This document shows, piece after piece, positions 2,243-32,017 of a stretch of DNA of 32,017 nt. A model generated the notes under the pieces. The model saw only the letters and a program-made list of their open reading frames with translations, had not been told where the DNA came from and did not search any database. Position 1 is the first letter of the stretch, and each line of letters starts with the position of its first letter. The position numbers were made by a program, and so were the translations under genes. This DNA comes from a virus. The stretch spans positions 1 through 32,017 of IMG/VR virus record IMGVR_UViG_3300010049_000008; one strand, given 5' to 3'.

Positions 2243-2285
2243 TTTATATATCCGTTTGGTATATGTTAACATGGAGTTAAACAAC
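2243..2285 (+). promoter_or_regulatory. Promoter/operator/leader cassette P1: TTTATATA-N12-ATGTTAACAT-GGAGTTAAACAAC-ATG
   Basis: TATA-like octamer at 2243..2250, 10-bp palindrome at 2263..2272, GGAG, then ATG at 2286. The 49 nt at 2243..2291 are identical to 31310..31358. Confidence 0.6.
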
Positions 2286-2654
2286 ATGACCGTACTAATG
2301 AACTATAAAAAAATTGAACAATCTCATCTTAACCAAATAATAAAAAACATGGAACAACTCGGATACACAGGTAAAGACTACCACACAGCCAAACAACCTT
2401 TCCCCCAAGACAAAAAACTCAGCGGAATACAAAAAGAAAGCTTCAGCTACTCAGTTAATGGCCGTGGAGAATTAATTGACGAAACCGTAAGCCAAATGAC
2501 AATACACTCAGCCGCACAAGGCAAAGTATTAATTTATAATAAAGAATGCTTCGAAATAATAAGCCGCAACGGAAAAGGCATAGAAGCCCAAAGAATAGTA
2601 GAACTCTATCCAAAACGATTTACATGCAAGGTAGTTTTTCGCTACCTCTACTAA
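2286..2654 (+). CDS. Hypothetical protein, 122 aa (MTVLMNYKKIEQSHLNQ...)
   Basis: 3' part of track ORF 2064..2654. Start set at the ATG after the conserved GGAGTTAAACAAC leader. The upstream part of that ORF is antisense to gene 1953..2213 and crosses the promoter. Confidence 0.65.
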   Translation: MTVLMNYKKIEQSHLNQIIKNMEQLGYTGKDYHTAKQPFPQDKKLSGIQKESFSYSVNGRGELIDETVSQMTIHSAAQGKVLIYNKECFEIISRNGKGIEAQRIVELYPKRFTCKVVFRYLY

Positions 2655-2959: not shown

Positions 2960-3002
2960 TTTAAATACTCATAAGCCTATGTAAACATAGGGAAGGAACA
3001 AC
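2960..3002 (+). promoter_or_regulatory. Promoter cassette P6: TTTAAATAC-N7-CCTATGTAAACATAGG-GAAGGAACAAC-ATG
   Basis: TATA-like box at 2960..2968, palindrome at 2976..2991 (7-nt arms), and leader ATAGGGAAGGA shared with the promoters at 24996..25038 and 19763..19809. Confidence 0.5.
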
Positions 3003-3653
3003 ATGAAAAAACAAACCTATGAATACCTAATAGCGGCATTATTAATAACCGCAATAATTTTAGGCATAACAGCTTTTATAATACTTTATCCGTGGGGACA
3101 AGAAACCACACAAGCAAACTGCAACATCACACCCACGGTAAATGTCACAGATGCAGAGTTAGCCGTATATCAACAAGTCAGCCAAGAAACCCGCATGAAC
3201 CACAAAACAAACCCCGCCTATTTCATGCAAAGCAGTCACCCAAAAATAATCGCGCTATGCAAACAATTAAACCAGCAGGGCGTAGACCAAAACCTAACCC
3301 CGGAAGAATTCGCACAATACCTCCTCAACTACGTATACACCGCCATCCAATATGCAGAAGACAAAGACACAACCCCCTACAACGACTACTACAATTTTCC
3401 CATAGAAACCTTAGCCCTCGGCTATGGCGACTGCGAAGACACCGCAATGCTCTACATGACCCTTTTAGATTACTTCAATTATGACTATTGTGCTTTCATA
3501 ACCAACACCCACTATTTTGTGGGTATAGCTGGAAACTTTAGCGGCAACCAAATAAACGGATACTACTATGCAGACACAACAACATACAACTATATTATCG
3601 GTAATCCGGTGGTACAAATAGAGGGAGAAAGAGTATGGCAATACTACCCTTAG
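3003..3653 (+). CDS. Signal-anchored transglutaminase-like (papain-fold) cysteine peptidase; candidate lysin
   Basis: N-terminal TM segment (YLIAALLITAIILGITAFIILY), then LALGYGDCEDTAMLYMTLL (the G-x-C-x-D core motif of transglutaminase-like enzymes), a later HYFVGI (His) and YYADTT (Asp). Confidence 0.65.
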   Translation: MKKQTYEYLIAALLITAIILGITAFIILYPWGQETTQANCNITPTVNVTDAELAVYQQVSQETRMNHKTNPAYFMQSSHPKIIALCKQLNQQGVDQNLTPEEFAQYLLNYVYTAIQYAEDKDTTPYNDYYNFPIETLALGYGDCEDTAMLYMTLLDYFNYDYCAFITNTHYFVGIAGNFSGNQINGYYYADTTTYNYIIGNPVVQIEGERVWQYYP

Positions 3654-15396: not shown

Positions 15397-16698
15397 TTAG
15401 GGGTTGGCACCCATTAGGGCCGCCATAACTGCACCAATATCCCCATTATACTGGATGAGGAGTTCACGTGCATTCTGTTCTACACCGCGTGCCCGCTTAA
15501 CATTGGGGCCTGACCCGGTTTCTGCTGTTGGGCTGGTTTGTTTAGCATCGGTTCGGGTGGGGACTAAGTCAGGGTTCGCGTTTGGTATGGTGCCCGCATC
15601 TGCGCCCGCTTCAACTTGTTTAGCTTGCTCGTATCCACCGGTGTTGGGGCCGCCCATAGTTGGAGGACAAGTAACATTAGCGGGAGTCCAAGTACCCTCC
15701 TGATATTTACCACGGAATTTACGTTCAGCCGCCATAAGAATCTCTTGGGGTGTACGGTTCTGTTTTAGCGACTCTTCTTGTTCTTCTTCCTCTTCACCTT
15801 CGCCCTCTTCCCCCTCTTCTTCTTCGGTTTCAACTTCTACAGTAGTGATGTTGACTTCGACAGATTCTTTAGGTTTTTTCTTCTCTTTCTTTTGCTTCTC
15901 CTCTTCCTCTTCTTCCTCGTCTTTGTCGTCCGCTTCTTCTTCCTCCTCCTCTTCATCTTTAGCTTCTTCTTTGGATTTCTTTTTCTTAGCGGCCTCTTTA
16001 GATTTCTTGGTTTTGGTTTCTTCTTCTTCTTCTTCTTCTTCTTCTTCTTCTTCTTCTTCTTTGGCGGCTTGTTTTAGGGGTTTGCATGTTGGGCATCCGC
16101 ATTCTGCGACGTGTACGGGTTGGAGTTTAGCCATCATAGCTTCCAATATTTTTAGTTTCGCGTCAAAAGTTTCATCTATACGTTTCATGGCTGATTCATA
16201 TATGCGAGTTGATTTTTCGCTGTCTCTGAGGCTTTGGGTGATACGTGATATTTCAGTCATGGCCGCCTGTTCAATTGCCGGGAAAGGTGTGATGCTTAAT
16301 TCTTCGGGGTTGAATTCGATAATCATTTCTTTCCCGTCTGCGGTTAGTACCATTGGGCCGTTACCGCCGACAGAAACACCCATCAACATTTTAGGCTTAC
16401 CGTTCTCGCCGCTCATTTTTTCGAAAAGGGATTCGTGAAGCAAGCCGCGGCCAGACAACCAAAGACCATCAACAGTTTGACCCAACGCATTTTTTCCTGT
16501 ACCATATTCTGCGGATTCCACAACACCCGCAACATCACGAGACCCAAAGCCGTGGTCTAACATGAGGGGTTTTCCGGGGTACTTTGGTGCGGCGTCCATT
16601 AATGTTTTTTCGTTCCAGATATAGCCGTTGCGCGACTCGGTTGGGTAAGCCGCGAAAGCTTTCCAATTGAAATATGCATTACCTTGTTTATCTGCCAT
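15397..16698 (-). CDS. Prohead protease (HK97 / S78-like) fused to a coiled-coil and highly acidic scaffold domain, 433 aa
   Basis: PLMLDHGFGSRDVAGVV, LMGVSVGG and EELSITPFPAIEQA match the landmarks of HK97-family prohead proteases. A coiled coil and a ~100-aa Glu/Lys tract follow. Confidence 0.8.
   Translation of the reverse strand: MADKQGNAYFNWKAFAAYPTESRNGYIWNEKTLMDAAPKYPGKPLMLDHGFGSRDVAGVVESAEYGTGKNALGQTVDGLWLSGRGLLHESLFEKMSGENGKPKMLMGVSVGGNGPMVLTADGKEMIIEFNPEELSITPFPAIEQAAMTEISRITQSLRDSEKSTRIYESAMKRIDETFDAKLKILEAMMAKLQPVHVAECGCPTCKPLKQAAKEEEEEEEEEEEEEETKTKKSKEAAKKKKSKEEAKDEEEEEEEADDKDEEEEEEEKQKKEKKKPKESVEVNITTVEVETEEEEGEEGEGEEEEEQEESLKQNRTPQEILMAAERKFRGKYQEGTWTPANVTCPPTMGGPNTGGYEQAKQVEAGADAGTIPNANPDLVPTRTDAKQTSPTAETGSGPNVKRARGVEQNARELLIQYNGDIGAVMAALMGANP
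16018..16059 (-). repeat. Perfect (GAA)14 trinucleotide microsatellite inside the scaffold domain
   Basis: The plus strand reads ttc x14 without interruption and encodes a poly-Glu run. Further imperfect GAA/GAG/AAG runs extend down to about 15770. Confidence 0.9.
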
Positions 16699-19626: not shown

Positions 19627-19691
19627 GTTTTCACATTCATCATGTTGTTTAATTTTATGTGATGTTTACAGTGTTTGTTGTGGTATTTAAA
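19627..19691 (-). promoter_or_regulatory. Promoter cassette P8 with micro-uORF: TTTAAATAC-N12-cTGTAAACAT-N9-TTAAACAAC-ATGATGAATGTGAAAACATGA
   Basis: TATA-like box at 19683..19691 (minus strand) and a 9/10 copy of the operator at 19662..19670. AACAACATG opens a 6-codon uORF whose TGA overlaps the gene ATG at 19626. Confidence 0.45.
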
Positions 19692-19762
19692 CCTTGCACT
19701 TACATAACCGCTTACATAACTGGTATAGTTTTTATTATGTCGTGCACCAGTTTACCAATAGT

Positions 19763-19809
19763 TTTATATATTCGTTTGCTATATGTAAACATATAGGAAG
19801 AACAACAAC
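19763..19809 (+). promoter_or_regulatory. Promoter cassette P5: TTTATATA-N8-CTATATGTAAACATATAG-GAAGAACAACAAC-ATG
   Basis: TATA octamer at 19763..19770, 18-nt palindrome at 19779..19796 (8-nt arms), and ATGTAAACAT at +21..+30 from the TATA start. Divergent from P8. Confidence 0.5.
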
Positions 19810-20007
19810 ATGACCACACAAATAACCAAAGAACGTAAAATTGAATTAATTGCACAAGCTGAAAATATTCATCGACAAGCCTTCAAACTATACTGTGACT
19901 TAGGAGAGGCAGAGGTTGGAGTTAAAATTGACAGCCAAGTTGCAAAAATCAGCCAACTTTTAAATAAAATTGTTAAAGACCTGAAAGCTCTGGAAGTTAA
20001 TAAATGA
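19810..20007 (+). CDS. 65-aa helical protein; first gene of a plus-strand island
   Basis: Track ORF with AACAACATG start context and its own promoter. Confidence 0.6.
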   Translation: MTTQITKERKIELIAQAENIHRQAFKLYCDLGEAEVGVKIDSQVAKISQLLNKIVKDLKALEVNK

Positions 20008-25255: not shown

Positions 25256-25609
25256 TTAATCCCTCTCAGTTAAGTTAGTTTTGTCATAATTGAAACGTAC
25301 ACTGCTTATTCGGCTTTCTATACCTGCAATACGTCTATTTAATTCACCTATATACAGGTCAAGTTCTACACCATCTTGGATTAGGTAATATCCATTAGAG
25401 GTTGCTCCTATGGGCAGATAGGTATGTTTAATCAGGAATCGGATGTAGCTTCTTGTTTTGGGATTGGCTTCGCCGTCGTTTATGTCAAGTTTTTCTGCTA
25501 TCTCGGTGCTGGTTATAGGGTTATCTTTTCCGGCGTGTTGTACAAGTAAGTTTTGAAGCTGTCTCAATGTTTGGCCGTCTAAACGGTGTTTAGTTCCTTT
25601 TTTGTTCAT
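25256..25609 (-). CDS. Winged-helix (HTH_11/BirA-like) transcription regulator, 117 aa
   Basis: NPITSTEIAEKLDI...KTRSYIRFLIKHTYLPIGATSNGYYL is a typical wHTH, followed by a helical tail. Start set at the ATG after the conserved leader. Confidence 0.65.
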   Translation of the reverse strand: MNKKGTKHRLDGQTLRQLQNLLVQHAGKDNPITSTEIAEKLDINDGEANPKTRSYIRFLIKHTYLPIGATSNGYYLIQDGVELDLYIGELNRRIAGIESRISSVRFNYDKTNLTERD

Positions 25610-25652
25610 GTTGTTTAACTCCATGTTAACATATACCAAAGTAGTATTTAAA
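25610..25652 (-). promoter_or_regulatory. Promoter cassette P3: TTTAAATAC-N11-ATGTTAACAT-GGAGTTAAACAAC-ATG
   Basis: 35 nt (25606..25640) are identical to P1/P2. TATA-like box at 25644..25652 and palindrome at 25623..25632. Confidence 0.55.
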
Positions 25653-25854
25653 CTTTATCTGGATATGGGAAATGCACTAAATGAGTGTGACCACCTAAAT
25701 CAAGAGACCATCTTAACCAATTTAGAAATCTATATAAAGTTATGCGGTCAGTTTGATTGTAATGCATTTTGTTTAAAAAATAAAAAGCGTTATCATGATA
25801 AACACTTATTCTTTGTTGAGAATAAAAAATGTTTATGGATTCTGAATGTTTCAT
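25648..25854 (-). CDS. Hypothetical protein, 68 aa
   Basis: Track ORF with TAATG overlap to the upstream gene. Its stop codon lies inside the P3 TATA box. Confidence 0.45.
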   Translation of the reverse strand: MKHSESINIFYSQQRISVYHDNAFYFLNKMHYNQTDRITLYRFLNWLRWSLDLGGHTHLVHFPYPDKV

Positions 25855-26471: not shown

Positions 26472-26635
26472 GGCAATACCCTCGTTTCTTTGTTTCCGCA
26501 TATAGTACAAGCAATTATTATTTTCGATGTTGGTGGCCCAAAAATATAAAAAAAGACCACATCAGGATTTGATGATTTACAAAAGTCACATTTAAATTTA
26601 AATTGCTTGAACTCAAGATAGCCGTTCGATGTCAT
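26468..26635 (-). CDS. 55-aa zinc-ribbon micro-protein (MTSNGYLEFKQFKFKCDFCKSSNPDVVFFYIFGPPTSKIIIACTICGNKETRVLP)
   Basis: Hand-translated codon by codon and below the cutoff. CxxC(23)CxxC pattern. ATGA overlaps at both ends. Confidence 0.5.
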   Translation of the reverse strand: MTSNGYLEFKQFKFKCDFCKSSNPDVVFFYIFGPPTSKIIIACTICGNKETRVLP

Positions 26636-26985
26636 GGTTTCTCACTGTTGATTATGTGTTGTATGTCGAGTAATAGCGCTAAATAAACGTGTGGTTCAGT
26701 TTTTTCAGTTAGATTGTAATCTGAGATATCTTTGGCGATTAGTTTTAGTTTTGCGTCTGCGTTTGGCCTATAACATTCTTGTGGTTTTTGGTGCATGGTT
26801 GAGTATGATTCTTGACTGCAACTATACGTATTGCGGTATTTGCATGATTTGCATAAATCTTCTGGTTGTTTTTGTTTATAGTTACTTTTGAACCTGTCTG
26901 GATTAACGTTTAATGCACACATTAAACAAGATGTGCTGGTATTGCAGGGGCCGTGTGTACAGGTTTCACAAGATTCATTAATCAT
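26632..26985 (-). CDS. 117-aa Cys-rich protein
   Basis: Track ORF with CETCTHGPC...CLMC...CKSCKYRNTYSC clusters and ATGA overlap with the upstream gene. Confidence 0.6.
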   Translation of the reverse strand: MINESCETCTHGPCNTSTSCLMCALNVNPDRFKSNYKQKQPEDLCKSCKYRNTYSCSQESYSTMHQKPQECYRPNADAKLKLIAKDISDYNLTEKTEPHVYLALLLDIQHIINSEKP

Positions 26986-28834: not shown

Positions 28835-28872
28835 GTTGACCACACCATAACGGGGGGGGGAACATAAATAAA
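28835..28872 (-). promoter_or_regulatory. Leftward promoter-like element with a C9 tract: TTTATTTAT-GTT-CCCCCCCCC-GTTATGGTGTGGTCAAC-ATG
   Basis: A/T box at 28864..28872 (minus strand) and G9 on the plus strand at 28852..28860. Same CCCCCCCCCGTTA as at 1674..1686. Confidence 0.4.
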
Positions 28873-29144
28873 GCTTTCCTTCAGACGACGAAATTAAAAA
28901 ATGGTGATATATCCTACTCCGCTACCCGCGTGAAGCTAAAATGAAGAAATACCGTAAACACCAGTTTGGAGACCTTACGCCAACATGAAAACGTAAGATT
29001 GTTTTTGCGGTGCATCACAGGCAATCATCACCACCCAATAACAAGTATACAGGAATATAAATGTTAATAAAATGGCGGCTGGCTACAGCCATAACGCACC
29101 AATATACACGGCGTTTATAACCACATATACATGGATTTTGTCCC

Positions 29145-29400
29145 ATATTTTAGCTCTAAGGGGCGAGCGTCATCGTTGAGGGATAGCTTCAGCCGTTAAT
29201 CATAGCGGGCTTGGAGGCCCGTTCTTATAGCGCAAGCGGCAACTCACTATCACTTATTTCGACTTGACTGATAGCCCGGTTCATATGTGGACACTATCAG
29301 CCATTCCCGACAATCCGGCAGGGATTGACGAGCTTAACCAAGATACTTTCAGCGGTAACCGTCACAAGCCTTACGAGGGCAAGCCGTCATTACATGATTT
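29145..29400. ncRNA. Candidate structured non-coding RNA (visibly G+C-richer island inside the control region)
   Basis: Local hairpins: AGCGGGC/GCCCGTT (29204..29223), CTGATAG/CTATCAG (29268..29300) and CAATCC/GGATTG (29310..29326). TTTATAA at 29114..29120 could serve as a TATA box for plus-strand transcription. Strand and ends are unknown. Confidence 0.2.
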
Positions 29401-29567
29401 CTCTATATCTGCACTCCTACGCAAATAGTAAGTTTGCGTTAATTGCCACAATTGATTAAGCATACCCTAATAGGTGAAAGTCATAATTAAAGTTATCTGA
29501 AATCAACCAAAACAACATTTTTGTTGTAGAGGCAAAGTTTCCGTTTTTCTATTCAACCAATGACTTA

Positions 29568-29610
29568 GGGTTAACGGGGTTAAAGAGGTTTAACCCCGTA
29601 AGGGGTTTTT
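29568..29610 (+). promoter_or_regulatory. Cluster of GGGGTTAA boxes forming two mutually exclusive hairpins
   Basis: H1 pairs ACGGGGTTAAA (29574..29584) with TTTAACCCCGT (29589..29599). H2 pairs AACCCC (29592..29597) with GGGGTT (29602..29607) around a GTAA loop, followed by a T run. Confidence 0.5.
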
Positions 29611-29841
29611 GAGTATTATAGTTTAGCGTTTTTTAGAGGGAGAAAAAGAAAAGTTAAGAAAGTTAAAGTTATTAATAGTATATATACTACTACTATCTAC
29701 ATTTACTTTTACTTTTACTTACAAGTAATACAATCGATACTTACACAACATCATATTTAAGGCTTTCCCAACAAACAATCAGGTGATTAGGGTGGATTTT
29801 TGGGTGCTGGAAAAAGTGTTTTATTGTTTTTCGCTTAGAAA

Positions 29842-29868
29842 GTTTAACCCAGTTAACCCCGTTAACCC
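29842..29868. repeat. Three tandem GTT(T)AACCC(C) boxes, inverted relative to the 29568..29584 boxes
   Basis: GTTTAACCC a GTTAACCCC GTTAACCC. Together with the upstream G-strand boxes they bracket a ~230-bp A/T-rich stretch containing (TTTTAC) repeats. Confidence 0.7.
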
Positions 29869-29930
29869 TGTTTGGTTGTTGTAGTTAGTTGCAATATTCT
29901 AAAAGTTATTCAACTAAAGTTTAATCTATT

Positions 29931-30018
29931 GTTAAACATGTTAAAGGTTGTGCAAAAGGTTAAGATGTTAAACATGTTAAAGGTTGTGCAAAAGGTTAAG
30001 ATGTTAAACATGTTAAAG
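29931..30018. repeat. 36-bp tandem direct repeat, 2.4 copies (iteron/operator-like)
   Basis: gttaaacatgttaaaggttgtgcaaaaggttaagat occurs at 29931..29966 and 29967..30002, both identical, with a partial third copy at 30003..30018. Each copy contains the AACATGTT palindrome. The array abuts the TATA box at 30019. Confidence 0.9.
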
Positions 30019-30063
30019 TTTATTAATGTGAGTGCAGTAAAGTCTATTATGGAGTTAAACAAC
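30019..30063 (+). promoter_or_regulatory. Rightward promoter P4: TTTATTAAT-N21-ATGGAGTTAAACAAC-ATG (opens an 11-codon uORF)
   Basis: It shares the 18-nt leader ATGGAGTTAAACAACATG with P1-P3. The ATG at 30064 encodes only MTTNKRNYLWL, which overlaps the real start at 30090. Confidence 0.5.
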
Positions 30064-30089
30064 ATGACTACAAACAAGAGGAATTATTT

Positions 30090-30326
30090 ATGGTTGTAAA
30101 AGAAATTAAAACACATGAAACCCGTCATCTGCTCATAAAAAGTCGTCATCCCGGAGAGGCCGCGTTAATAAAAGAGTTTAAGTTAATGGCAATACGTCAA
30201 AACAGTAATCACAACGAACTGTTTAACACTGTAATTCAGTTGGTAAAGGTGATTGAGCAGTTAGAAAATAAGTCATTAAATGAAGTGTATTATGAATACA
30301 CAAAAAAGTTATCGGTAGAGGGATAG
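30090..30326 (+). CDS. Hypothetical protein, 78 aa; first gene of the rightward arm
   Basis: Track ORF with GAGGAA 7 nt upstream. Possibly a small DNA-binding protein, but no motif is certain. Confidence 0.6.
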   Translation: MVVKEIKTHETRHLLIKSRHPGEAALIKEFKLMAIRQNSNHNELFNTVIQLVKVIEQLENKSLNEVYYEYTKKLSVEG

Positions 30327-30999: not shown

Positions 31000-31153
31000 A
31001 AGAATTTTCTCGGAGACTTACCTAAAAGGCCTGACGTGGATAAAATTACTAAATCTCAAAGCAGGTTATGAGTGCCAGCGGTTATTGCCTCCTCCAGAGA
31101 TCCAAGAGGAAATAGCGCGGAGAATAGGTGAGATAAATGGCAAAACAAGATAA
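30989..31153 (+). CDS. Possible 54-aa ORF with TTG start
   Basis: Hand-translated (LSVERIFSETYLKGLTWIKLLNLKAGYECQRLLPPPEIQEEIARRIGEINGKTR). GGAGG 8 nt upstream. It fills an otherwise empty gap and overlaps both neighbours. Confidence 0.25.
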   Translation: MSVERIFSETYLKGLTWIKLLNLKAGYECQRLLPPPEIQEEIARRIGEINGKTR

Positions 31154-31307
31154 GATAATCTGTATGTTCTGTGGGAAAGAAATAAGCGAATACACTCGGG
31201 TAACTATCACGTATAACAAGAAAACTTCGATATTGTTCACGTGCCCCAAGTGCCAGCAGGGTTATTATAGCGGGGGTTCACTCGATGACCCTCCCACATC
31301 ACCCTAA
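31137..31307 (+). CDS. 56-aa zinc-ribbon micro-protein (MAKQDKIICMFCGKEISEYTRVTITYNKKTSILFTCPKCQQGYYSGGSLDDPPTSP)
   Basis: Hand-translated and below the cutoff. CxxC(23)CxxC pattern, with GGTGA 5 nt upstream. Confidence 0.5.
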   Translation: MAKQDKIICMFCGKEISEYTRVTITYNKKTSILFTCPKCQQGYYSGGSLDDPPTSP

Positions 31308-31309
31308 CT

Positions 31310-31352
31310 TTTATATATCCGTTTGGTATATGTTAACATGGAGTTAAACAAC
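31310..31352 (+). promoter_or_regulatory. Promoter/operator/leader cassette P2 (identical to P1)
   Basis: 31310..31358 equals 2243..2291 (49/49). TATA at 31310..31317 and palindrome at 31330..31339. Confidence 0.6.
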
Positions 31353-31526
31353 ATGACCAGCACAGAACAATACAGAATAATAAACCGATTAACAACAGTA
31401 TGGGAAGAATTAGACGAACTACAACAAAGCCTATACCAGAAAGAACGCGACCAAATAATAGAGGCTAAAGTAGCGGTTGACAAAATTCTCAAAACCTTAA
31501 CAACCAACGACCACTATATAGAGTGA
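31353..31526 (+). CDS. 57-aa helical protein (MTSTEQYRIINRLTTVWEELDELQQSLYQ...)
   Basis: Track ORF 31323..31526 trimmed to the ATG after the conserved leader. Confidence 0.55.
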   Translation: MTSTEQYRIINRLTTVWEELDELQQSLYQKERDQIIEAKVAVDKILKTLTTNDHYIE

Positions 31527-31531
31527 ACAAC

Positions 31532-31861
31532 ATGCGACTAAACAATAAAGCAGACATAAAATATACTAAATCCCCACTAATTTTCAAAGAAATTACCGAA
31601 AGAGCAGAGAAAGGATTAGTACACGTCTACTTAAGAGACTCTTACTATAGTGATAAGTGTGGTGCACTTATCGCGACATTTAACAAAAAAGAAACACATG
31701 TGAAAACACTAACAGTATACCATGAAACTATAGGAAACAAACATCATAGTGTAGGGTTGCAAATGGTGAATAAACGAGATAACAGTCTTGTTTGTATTTG
31801 GGTTTTAGATAATTATAATGAGGAGAATACTCCATCTGAGGTGTGCTGTAGTGCACCGTGA
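31532..31861 (+). CDS. Hypothetical protein, 109 aa
   Basis: Track ORF 31523..31861 (GTG) trimmed to the ATG in the AACAACATG context. Confidence 0.6.
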   Translation: MRLNNKADIKYTKSPLIFKEITERAEKGLVHVYLRDSYYSDKCGALIATFNKKETHVKTLTVYHETIGNKHHSVGLQMVNKRDNSLVCIWVLDNYNEENTPSEVCCSAP

Positions 31862-31886: not shown

Positions 31887-32017
31887 ATGCGTATAGTGGC
31901 AGAAGCGTTAGAACGCTCATTCATCCAGCACATAAGCCTCCATCAGAATAGATTGTATTATCACATTTTTTGTGATGACCCCTTACAAATGCAGAGTTAT
32001 CAACAAGAATTAACCAA
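31887..32017 (+). CDS. Small ORF crossing the junction (49 aa, MRIVAEALERSFIQHISLHQNRLYYHIFCDDPLQMQSYQQELTKGVYGI); finishes at TAA 140..142 in the left copy
   Basis: ATG at 31887. The frame stays open through the repeat, and its TAA overlaps the next ATG (TAATG at 140..144). No family recognised. Confidence 0.3.
   Translation, partial: MRIVAEALERSFIQHISLHQNRLYYHIFCDDPLQMQSYQQELT
31895..32017. repeat. Terminal direct repeat, right copy (exactly equals 1..123)
   Basis: Same 123-nt string as 1..123. The window stops exactly at the end of the overlap, as expected for a circular or circularly permuted contig written with redundant ends. Confidence 0.95.

Follow-up and report, generated by a model that had tools for sequence, protein, structure and literature searches.

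The DNA analyzed here, referred to below as the window, is IMG/VR virus record IMGVR_UViG_3300010049_000008 at its full length (positions 1 to 32,017). It carries a short cassette, comprising a predicted promoter, a leader and a start codon, that stands ahead of several unrelated genes. An earlier reading of the letters alone (the sequence-only reading) had claimed that 49 nucleotides (nt) are reused verbatim at 2243-2291 and 31310-31358, that the last 35 nt recur on the minus strand at 25606-25640 in front of a winged-helix regulator, and that the last 18 nt recur at 30049-30066. All of these identities are exact, and the last one runs to 20 nt. The 49-mer, TTTATATATCCGTTTGGTATATGTTAACATGGAGTTAAACAACATGACC, lies on the plus strand at both sites, with 0 occurrences expected (100 shuffles). 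The 18-mer, ATGGAGTTAAACAACATG, is found at four sites (2271, 31338 and 30049 on the plus strand and 25607-25624 on the minus strand), again with 0 expected. We refer to the four sites as copies A (2243), B (31310), C (minus strand) and F (30049); their elements are listed in Table 1.

Exact copies of the cassette

Identity between copies A and B runs from the first T of a TATA box to two codons past the second of two ATG codons and stops abruptly at both edges, where flanking bases match at 2/10 positions on one side and 1/10 on the other. Over the same 49 nt, copy C departs from A only at cassette positions 5, 9, 10, 11, 12 and 48, and its TATA box is still of consensus type, TTTAAATA replacing TTTATATA. 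Copies B and C also share a weak similarity over about 18 nt upstream of the TATA box. As the sequence-only reading had it, the two ATG codons (ATG1 at 2271 and ATG2 at 2286 in copy A) are in frame, because they are spaced 15 nt apart, and the genes downstream are unrelated: in blastp comparisons of the proteins behind the cassettes, there was no match below E = 0.4.

Viral genome and host

Positions 1-123 and 31895-32017 form an exact direct repeat of 123 nt at the two ends of the window, which is therefore a complete viral genome of 31,894 bp, circular or terminally redundant. The minus strand encodes a large terminase, a portal protein, a Mu-F-like protein and a tail protein of 1,543 amino acids (aa), as in a head-tailed virus. 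The plus-strand arm is composed of small ORFan genes and extends from 30049 across the genome ends to 3653. Plus and minus arms diverge from a 1.2-kb non-coding region, and a second group of small ORFans is found at the start of the minus arm, from 28834 downwards. Wherever an ENA assembly of this virus can be aligned with the window, the cassettes included, identity is 100%, and a Logan contig likewise from this virus breaks off inside the cassette repeat, an end to be expected there because of the repeated 35-mer. That the repeat is seen across the ENA and Logan assemblies means that it is not an artefact of one assembly.

No relative of the terminase exceeding 52% identity was found among 5.8 billion proteins. 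In the GTDB genome set, 11 of the 11 best matches (identity 41-52%) belong to metagenome-assembled genomes of Bathyarchaeota/Bathyarchaeia, for which reason the host is very probably a Bathyarchaeia archaeon. The terminase relatives include integrated copies, one of them in a complete 3.05-Mb chromosome and others in contigs with lengths of 267-327 kb. Our search of the GenBank phage collection gave no DNA match to the window, and the best terminase match there has about 28% identity. Fuxivirus and Kunpengvirus (PMC10541130) differ from the virus described here, having a type IV cas cluster and an integrase plus polymerase, respectively, none of which turned up in this genome.

Anatomy of the predicted promoter

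Cassette positions 1-8, TTTATATA, form a canonical archaeal TATA box (TTTAWATA). Counting three diverged copies (D, E and G) that are described below, this box is TTTATATA in A, B and D, TTTAAATA in C, E and G, and a weaker TTTATTAA in F. TTTATATA or TTTAAATA is also present upstream of host genes beside a terminase-related provirus. The median distance from the TATA box to mapped transcription starts downstream of it is 23 bp in Thermococcus kodakarensis, where the 5' untranslated region has a median length of 16 nt and about 50% of mRNAs have a ribosome-binding site, GGDGRD (PMC4247193). When the 23-bp distance is applied to the cassette, the predicted start (+1) falls on the G of ATG1 (2273, 31340 and 25622), at a T/G pyrimidine-purine step; an alternative predicted +1 is the A two bases upstream, at a C/A step. 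The distance from the TATA box to the base that follows ..CAT or ..TAT is constant at 22 nt in six of the seven copies (A, B, C, D, F and G) and amounts to 21 nt in E. A perfect 10-bp palindrome, ATGTTAACAT, fills positions -10 to -1 in A, B and C. The predicted transcript would open with the 13-nt leader GGAGUUAAACAAC followed by the AUG of ATG2, with GGAG 9 nt before ATG2.

The sequence-only reading had described a promoter-operator-leader-start cassette and left the type of promoter unnamed. The TATA box, the start geometry, the 13-nt leader and the GGAG motif support a layout of promoter, leader and start, and the predicted promoter fits closely the archaeal TATA-box type, not the sigma-70 type; a scan with the sigma-70 consensus flagged no site inside 2243-2291. 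We also considered a non-coding RNA, and found no tRNA and no Rfam family.

A predicted promoter class of seven members

Three further, diverged members, which the sequence-only reading had overlooked, were identified (copies D, E and G in Table 1). The motif TGTWAACAT has six sites in the window, giving nine matches on both strands versus 1.39 expected, and all six are located in promoters of the cassette family. Likewise, ATGTNNACAT (ATGT-NN-ACAT) occurs five times versus 0.69 expected, each time directly before the predicted +1. All leaders of the family end in AACAAC before the ATG; AACAACATG occurs 10 times versus 0.67 expected, mostly at gene starts, and GGAGTTAAACAAC is identical ahead of four ATG codons. 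We propose that D, E and G represent an older, diverged second tier in this promoter class, marked by ATGTAAACAT. The cassette appears to be the best-preserved part of a seven-member promoter class.

Copy F stands at the head of the plus arm, and its exact match to the cassette is confined to the 20-nt leader, with no palindrome. Abutting its TATA-like box is a tandem repeat of a 36-nt unit (Table 1), two copies of which contain ATGTTAAACAT, in which an additional base is inserted at the center of the cassette palindrome; the first copy departs from it at one position. The factor that would recognize the cassette may have further binding sites in these repeats. The tandem repeat has one copy fewer in the ENA assembly, reflecting either a real variation in copy number or an assembly collapse.

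In copies F and G the start codon opens a very short reading frame. ATG2 of copy F starts an ORF of only 11 codons, whose stop overlaps the ATG (30090) of a 78-aa ORF, and the ATG of copy G starts one of 6 codons, with a TGA that overlaps the ATG (19626) of a 295-aa ORF. Both mini-ORFs begin at AACAACATG: the first (30064-30099) reads MTTNKRNYLWL-stop and the second (19643-19623, minus strand) MMNVKT-stop. The overlap of their stops with the next ATG suggests translational coupling. Between G and D, which are back-to-back promoters, the direct repeat CTTACATAAC is present twice, 13 nt apart (19697-19725); it may be a binding site for another factor.

Table 1. Positions and elements of the seven cassette copies and of associated features in the window
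Feature	Positions	Strand	TATA box	Palindrome or counterpart	Predicted start	Leader and start codons	Downstream gene or remark
Copy A	2243-2291	+	TTTATATA, 2243-2250; spacer 2251-2262	ATGTTAACAT, 2263-2272	G2273 (alternative A2271)	ATG1 2271-2273; GGAG 2273-2276; ATG2 2286-2288	122-aa ORF, 2286-2654
Copy B	31310-31358	+	31310-31317	31330-31339	G31340	ATG2 31353	57-aa ORF, 31353-31526, then 109-aa ORF, 31532-31861
Copy C	25606-25653	-	TTTAAATA, 25652-25645	25632-25623	G25622	ATG1 25624-25622; ATG2 25609-25607	Winged-helix protein, 25256-25609
Copy D	19763-19812	+	TTTATATA, 19763-19770	ATGTAAACAT, 19783-19792	A19793	ATAGGAAGAACAACAAC; ATG 19810; no ATG1 equivalent	65-aa ORF; layout TTTATATA-TTCGTTTGCTAT-ATGTAAACAT-ATAGGAAGAACAACAAC-ATG
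Copy E	2960-3005	+	TTTAAATA, 2960-2967	ATGTAAACAT, 2979-2988	2989/2990	(A)GGGAAGGAACAAC; ATG 3003	216-aa transglutaminase-like protein; layout TTTAAATA-N11-ATGTAAACAT-AGGGAAGGAACAAC-ATG
Copy F	30019-30068	+	TATA-like TTTATTAA, 30019-30026, then 22 unrelated nt to ATG1		A30049	20-nt leader ATGGAGTTAAACAACATGAC, 30049-30068	
Copy G	19641-19691	-	TTTAAATA, 19691-19684	TGTAAACAT, 19670-19662		AACAACATG, 19649-19641	Layout TTTAAATA-N13-TGTAAACAT-CACATAAAATTAAACAAC-ATG
Winged-helix protein	25256-25609	-					117 aa, long C-terminal helix; behind copy C
Tandem repeat	29930-30018	+					36-nt unit in 2.5 copies, immediately upstream of the TATA-like box of copy F

Choice of start codon

Two ways of starting translation had been envisaged in the sequence-only reading, either from ATG1, giving proteins with a common MELNN prefix, or from ATG2 behind a leader with GGAG. 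Several features of the sequence favor the second option and disfavor the first. Copies D, E and G have no ATG at the position of ATG1 and have kept that of ATG2. The GGAG motif at Shine-Dalgarno spacing from ATG2 is meaningful because Shine-Dalgarno cores are in general use in this genome, GGAG, GAGG or GGTG being present upstream of 25 of the 54 gene starts versus a background of 11%. Gene calls stored with the ENA and Logan contigs begin at ATG2 (proteins of 117 aa and 57 aa). Finally, the stretch before the first helix has a median length of 10 residues in 59 aligned homologues of the winged-helix protein, to be compared with 17 residues in the form started at ATG2 and 22 in that started at ATG1, so that even from ATG2 the N-terminus is longer than in 58 of the 59 homologues. 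On these grounds, ATG2 is the likelier start codon. We also observed that many genes of this virus begin with ATGAC(N), hence a frequent Thr as second residue, and are preceded by an A/C-rich AACAAC or AAC. This start context is a genome-wide preference that extends past the cassette.

A winged-helix protein and a candidate operator

The 117-aa protein encoded behind copy C has no Pfam match, and a few of its homologues have weak Pfam helix-turn-helix matches. It matches phrog_2113, a family of unknown function (9e-15), and Pfam and PHROGs searches on the other cassette-driven proteins and their neighbors returned nothing informative beyond this. An exhaustive HMMER search yielded 418 homologues, where a word-index search returned only the protein itself, and a sequence search of the PDB gave weak matches only. 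The AlphaFold2 model (60-sequence alignment, pLDDT 93.9) comprises three helices, a beta-hairpin wing and a 37-residue C-terminal helix. Compared with the PDB by Foldseek, this model matches the winged-helix domains of MepR/MarR, NiaR, LexA, BirA (N-terminal), ScpB and AspA with probabilities of 0.9-1.0. The winged-helix assignment made in the sequence-only reading thus holds at the level of the fold.

The long C-terminal helix of the model suggests a dimer, which would suit a palindromic site. The palindrome ATGTTAACAT, at positions -10 to -1, is a candidate operator. It is present in the regulator's own promoter (copy C) as well as in A and B, and variants of it are found in D, E and G and in the repeats beside F. 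By analogy with known viral circuits, it is plausible that the 117-aa protein is an autoregulating repressor of the cassette regulon. Its model is a winged helix-turn-helix, not the ribbon-helix-helix of F55, SvtR and AvtR, which makes it an analogue at the level of the circuit and not a member of that family.

Relatives, and possible constraint or recent copying

For comparison we examined ~105 related loci, with terminase identities of 22-52%. At these loci there are no dispersed exact repeats of at least 20 nt at promoter positions, no TATA-N10-14-TGTNNACAT arrangement, no copy of the leader and no homologue of any cassette-driven protein. Searching IMG/VR for the 18-mer gave two unrelated matches only, both inside coding sequence, and searching JGI metagenome contigs for a 21-mer gave one chance match only, in a 175-kb contig, and no cassette-carrying relative. 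As far as these comparisons reach, the verbatim reuse of the cassette appears lineage-specific, which argues for a virus-specific element and against a general promoter element of the host.

The window itself offers internal signs of constraint. The edges of the identity coincide with functional landmarks, the edge of the TATA box and the start codon, which points to constraint, as does the clustering of the mismatches of copy C in the 5' 12 nt with the TATA consensus kept. Copy F shares exactly the predicted transcribed leader, and we count this as a further sign. The same identity boundaries are equally compatible with an origin by copy-paste or gene conversion.

A probable self-contained expression module

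Taking these observations together, we think it probable that the cassette provides an archaeal virus with an expression module that is complete in itself. Host TBP and TFB would bind the TATA box, TTTATATA or, in copy C, TTTAAATA, and RNA polymerase would start about 23 nt downstream, at the end of the palindrome and on ATG1, most likely on its G. In the 13-nt leader GGAGUUAAACAAC, GGAG would pair with the 3' end of 16S rRNA 9 nt before ATG2, where translation would begin. Copies A, B and C, with the leader-sharing copy F, would place four transcription units under one control, namely two sets of small ORFans, the winged-helix gene and the first genes of the plus arm, all four having promoter strength, operator and translation-initiation region in common. 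A dimeric DNA-binding protein sitting on the palindrome may then block polymerase recruitment or promoter opening. The best candidate for this binder is the 117-aa winged-helix protein expressed from copy C, which would close an autoregulatory circuit, and the ATGTTAAACAT repeats beside the TATA-like box of copy F may serve the same factor.

A number of observations weigh against this explanation. An alignment of eight sequences disclosed no conserved TFB-recognition element (BRE) upstream of the TATA boxes, and in all four copies the predicted transcription start falls 0-2 nt from ATG1, coinciding with its A in copy F. In winged-helix dimers of the typical kind the half-sites are usually spaced by about 10 bp, for which a palindrome of 10 bp is short. 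By E-value the Foldseek matches are weak (0.015 or more), and several other small proteins of the virus, Cys-rich or of the Zn-ribbon type, are alternative candidates for the binder; the Zn-ribbon proteins are encoded at 31137-31307, 1488-1673 and 26632-26985. Lastly, the exact identity, which the sequence-only reading had put down to regulatory selection, may also stem from recent duplication or gene conversion, and relatives of at most 52% terminase identity, the closest in any collection searched, do not tell these origins apart.

The closeness of the predicted start to ATG1 would suit a leaderless variant, in which the transcript begins with the A of ATG1 and its 5'-terminal AUG serves as the start codon, with no leader ahead of it. 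Such mRNAs are common in several archaeal lineages (PMC4247193), and the two ATG codons share a frame; the products of A, B and C would then have the MELNN prefix in common and copy F would yield a 16-residue peptide, MELNNMTTNKRNYLWL. We consider this variant unlikely in view of the evidence for ATG2 given above: the paralogous promoters D, E and G lack ATG1 yet keep the ATG2 position and its AACAAC context, GGAG lies at the proper Shine-Dalgarno distance in a genome that uses such motifs, and both the homologue N-termini and the stored gene calls speak for the shorter protein. A different view of the repeats is that a promoter module has recently been duplicated or subject to gene conversion, which would be the main source of their identity, and that its copies serve as short patches of homology for the gain, loss and shuffling of ORFans, in the manner of a T4-type PeSL in an archaeal virus. 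Functional promoter copies are compatible with such an origin, which partly overlaps the explanation that we prefer. The genes behind the copies are indeed ORFans with almost no family matches and without homologue at the related loci, the absence of comparable dispersed repeats from those loci points the same way, and the weak similarity of B and C upstream of the TATA box is what a copying event predicts. We find this origin possible but somewhat doubtful, as there is no terminator-like site around copy A and no stem-loop or T-run immediately ahead of A, B or C (a T-rich run precedes copy E only), the arrangement is the same in both assemblies, the edges of identity match functional landmarks and the variant TATA box of copy C is still a consensus one. 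More speculative, and in our opinion rather improbable, is a portable module that is copied or recombined through its 20-49 nt of identity to positions ahead of new ORFans, thereby enrolling them in a single autoregulated winged-helix regulon; as a sub-variant, the invariant 20-nt leader could be a translation operator acting at the RNA level, maybe coupled through the mini-ORFs of F and G.

The palindromes and the GTTAA-type arrays of the non-coding region may be centromere-like or origin-associated sites of a partition or genome-maintenance system, bound by the winged-helix protein in a manner likened to AspA of pNOB8, ScpB and TubR, their position ahead of genes being secondary. Foldseek matches do include AspA, the centromere-binding protein of pNOB8, along with ScpB and TubR, and region 28850-30050 contains GTTAAC/GTTAAA arrays with a 9-10-bp period. 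This function is very improbable all the same: we found no ParA/ParB-type partner or replication gene (Pfam on about 20 ORFs of the window, PHROGs on 10), and the distances from each ATGT-NN-ACAT site to a TATA box and to a start codon are fixed, for which partition sites would offer no reason. A bacterial phage promoter of the sigma-70 type could be read into AT-rich hexamers of the cassette, TATATG and TTGGTA among them. That the consensus scan finds no site within it, that the nearest terminase relatives are all in Bathyarchaeia and that the best match among GenBank phages reaches about 28% terminase identity make this the least credible of the explanations, with hardly any likelihood left to it.

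Control region and other features of the genome

Region 28850-30050 is non-coding and may be an origin or a control region. GTTAAC/GTTAAA motifs recur in it with a 9-10-bp period at 29567-29594 and 29842-29872, the two arrays being mutually inverted, and the 36-nt tandem repeats (29930-30018) lie in it as well. As a word in the window at large, GTTAAC is not enriched (15 occurrences versus 11 expected), and only its clustering in the control region and in the cassettes stands out. The region has no Rfam match, and on neither strand does the folding of segment 29140-29460 surpass that of shuffled sequence.

Two other promoter-like classes were noticed. The second class (1665-1707 on the plus strand and 28872-28832 on the minus strand) has a TATA-like TTTATCTA or TTTATTTA followed by nine C and GTTA, and stands ahead of the 1705 gene and of the gene that opens the minus arm (28834). 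Judged by eye, C9/G9 runs are apparently confined to this class within the window. The third class is found on the minus strand in the structural module, upstream of 15317, 16698 and 11456. It consists of TTTTTTAACTTC or TTTTTAAACTTC, about 14 nt, and TTATKT..GTGAA, with leaders of 10-14 nt that have no Shine-Dalgarno motif, and it may be a late class.

Adjoining copies A and E is a possible lysis module (1953-2213 on the minus strand, 2707-2922 and 3003-3653 on the plus strand), which comprises proteins of 86 aa and 71 aa, hydrophobic by eye, and the 216-aa protein driven by copy E. The latter has a transglutaminase-like cysteine-protease core (Pfam PF01841, 1.7e-5) and recalls the pseudomurein endoisopeptidases of methanogen viruses. 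No integrase or recombinase able to act on the repeats was detected by Pfam in about 20 ORFs of the window. In the structural module, the 433-aa product of ORF 15397-16698 (minus strand), encoded just upstream of the gene taken as that of the major capsid protein, has a Glu/Lys-rich low-complexity tract (15780-16075) that includes a perfect (GAA)n run.

Comparison with known systems and significance

Among the closest parallels are promoters of archaeal viruses. The regulators F55, SvtR and Stf76 bind sites that overlap the transcription start or the BRE of their own and of other viral promoters (PMC5569661, PMC4027180). SSV1 F55 (promoters T5, T6, Tind and Tlys), SIRV1 SvtR, the GTC motif that follows the TATA box in SIRV1/2 and the winged-helix Stf76 of pSSVx all involve TATA promoters of the TBP/TFB type, as would the cassette, with a virus-specific cis element near the TATA box or start that is repeated across viral promoters, including the regulator's own (PMC5569661, PMC4027180). 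Repression of this type occludes the pre-initiation complex. In the present case, identity goes beyond a short binding motif and takes in 35-49 nt, everything between the TATA box and the start codon included. As candidate regulator there is a predicted winged helix with a long C-terminal helix, whereas F55 and SvtR are ribbon-helix-helix proteins. The probable host, in addition, belongs to Bathyarchaeia and not to Sulfolobales, and the circuit proposed here is a prediction from sequence.

In T7-like phages, near-identical copies of a 23-bp promoter define a class of co-regulated genes that is read by a phage-encoded RNA polymerase. The present virus differs in having no recognizable polymerase and a standard TATA box of the host type. 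The SAS/ESAS elements of Cluster K mycobacteriophages (PMC3203893) are similar to the cassette in that a sequence with a Shine-Dalgarno core stands just upstream of the starts of unrelated, non-structural genes, in many cases linked with an inverted repeat on its upstream side, and belongs to a single lineage of phages. SAS measure 13 bp, are numerous in each genome and have no link to promoters, whereas here a few copies are fused to a TATA promoter in an archaeal virus. With its Shine-Dalgarno core before unrelated starts, the cassette leader resembles SAS in their defining feature, as an analogue only, in another domain of hosts. The PeSL of T4-type phages (PMC2839356, PMC4122927) are also repeated promoter cassettes, located before small variable ORFans and possibly offering homology for shuffling; they differ in having a terminator stem-loop and a sigma-70 early promoter.

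Repeated virus-specific promoter/operator modules are already well known as a phenomenon, which limits the conceptual surprise of this finding. Bathyarchaeia are abundant sediment archaea, and to our knowledge no pure culture exists. Their viruses are known only from metagenomes, and the main text of a study describing such viruses makes no mention of promoters or TATA boxes (PMC10541130). Should the cassette be a portable module, it would be an archaeal counterpart of PeSL and SAS, and the first cis-regulatory logic described for viruses of Bathyarchaeia. The genome provides an internally replicated prediction in five parts: a TATA box, a transcription start, a Shine-Dalgarno leader, a candidate operator and a candidate regulator. 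If confirmed, these would supply promoter and ribosome-binding-site parts and a repressor-operator pair for work on the Bathyarchaeia lineage. The value of the cassette lies mainly in these concrete and testable regulatory predictions for the viruses of this archaeal lineage.

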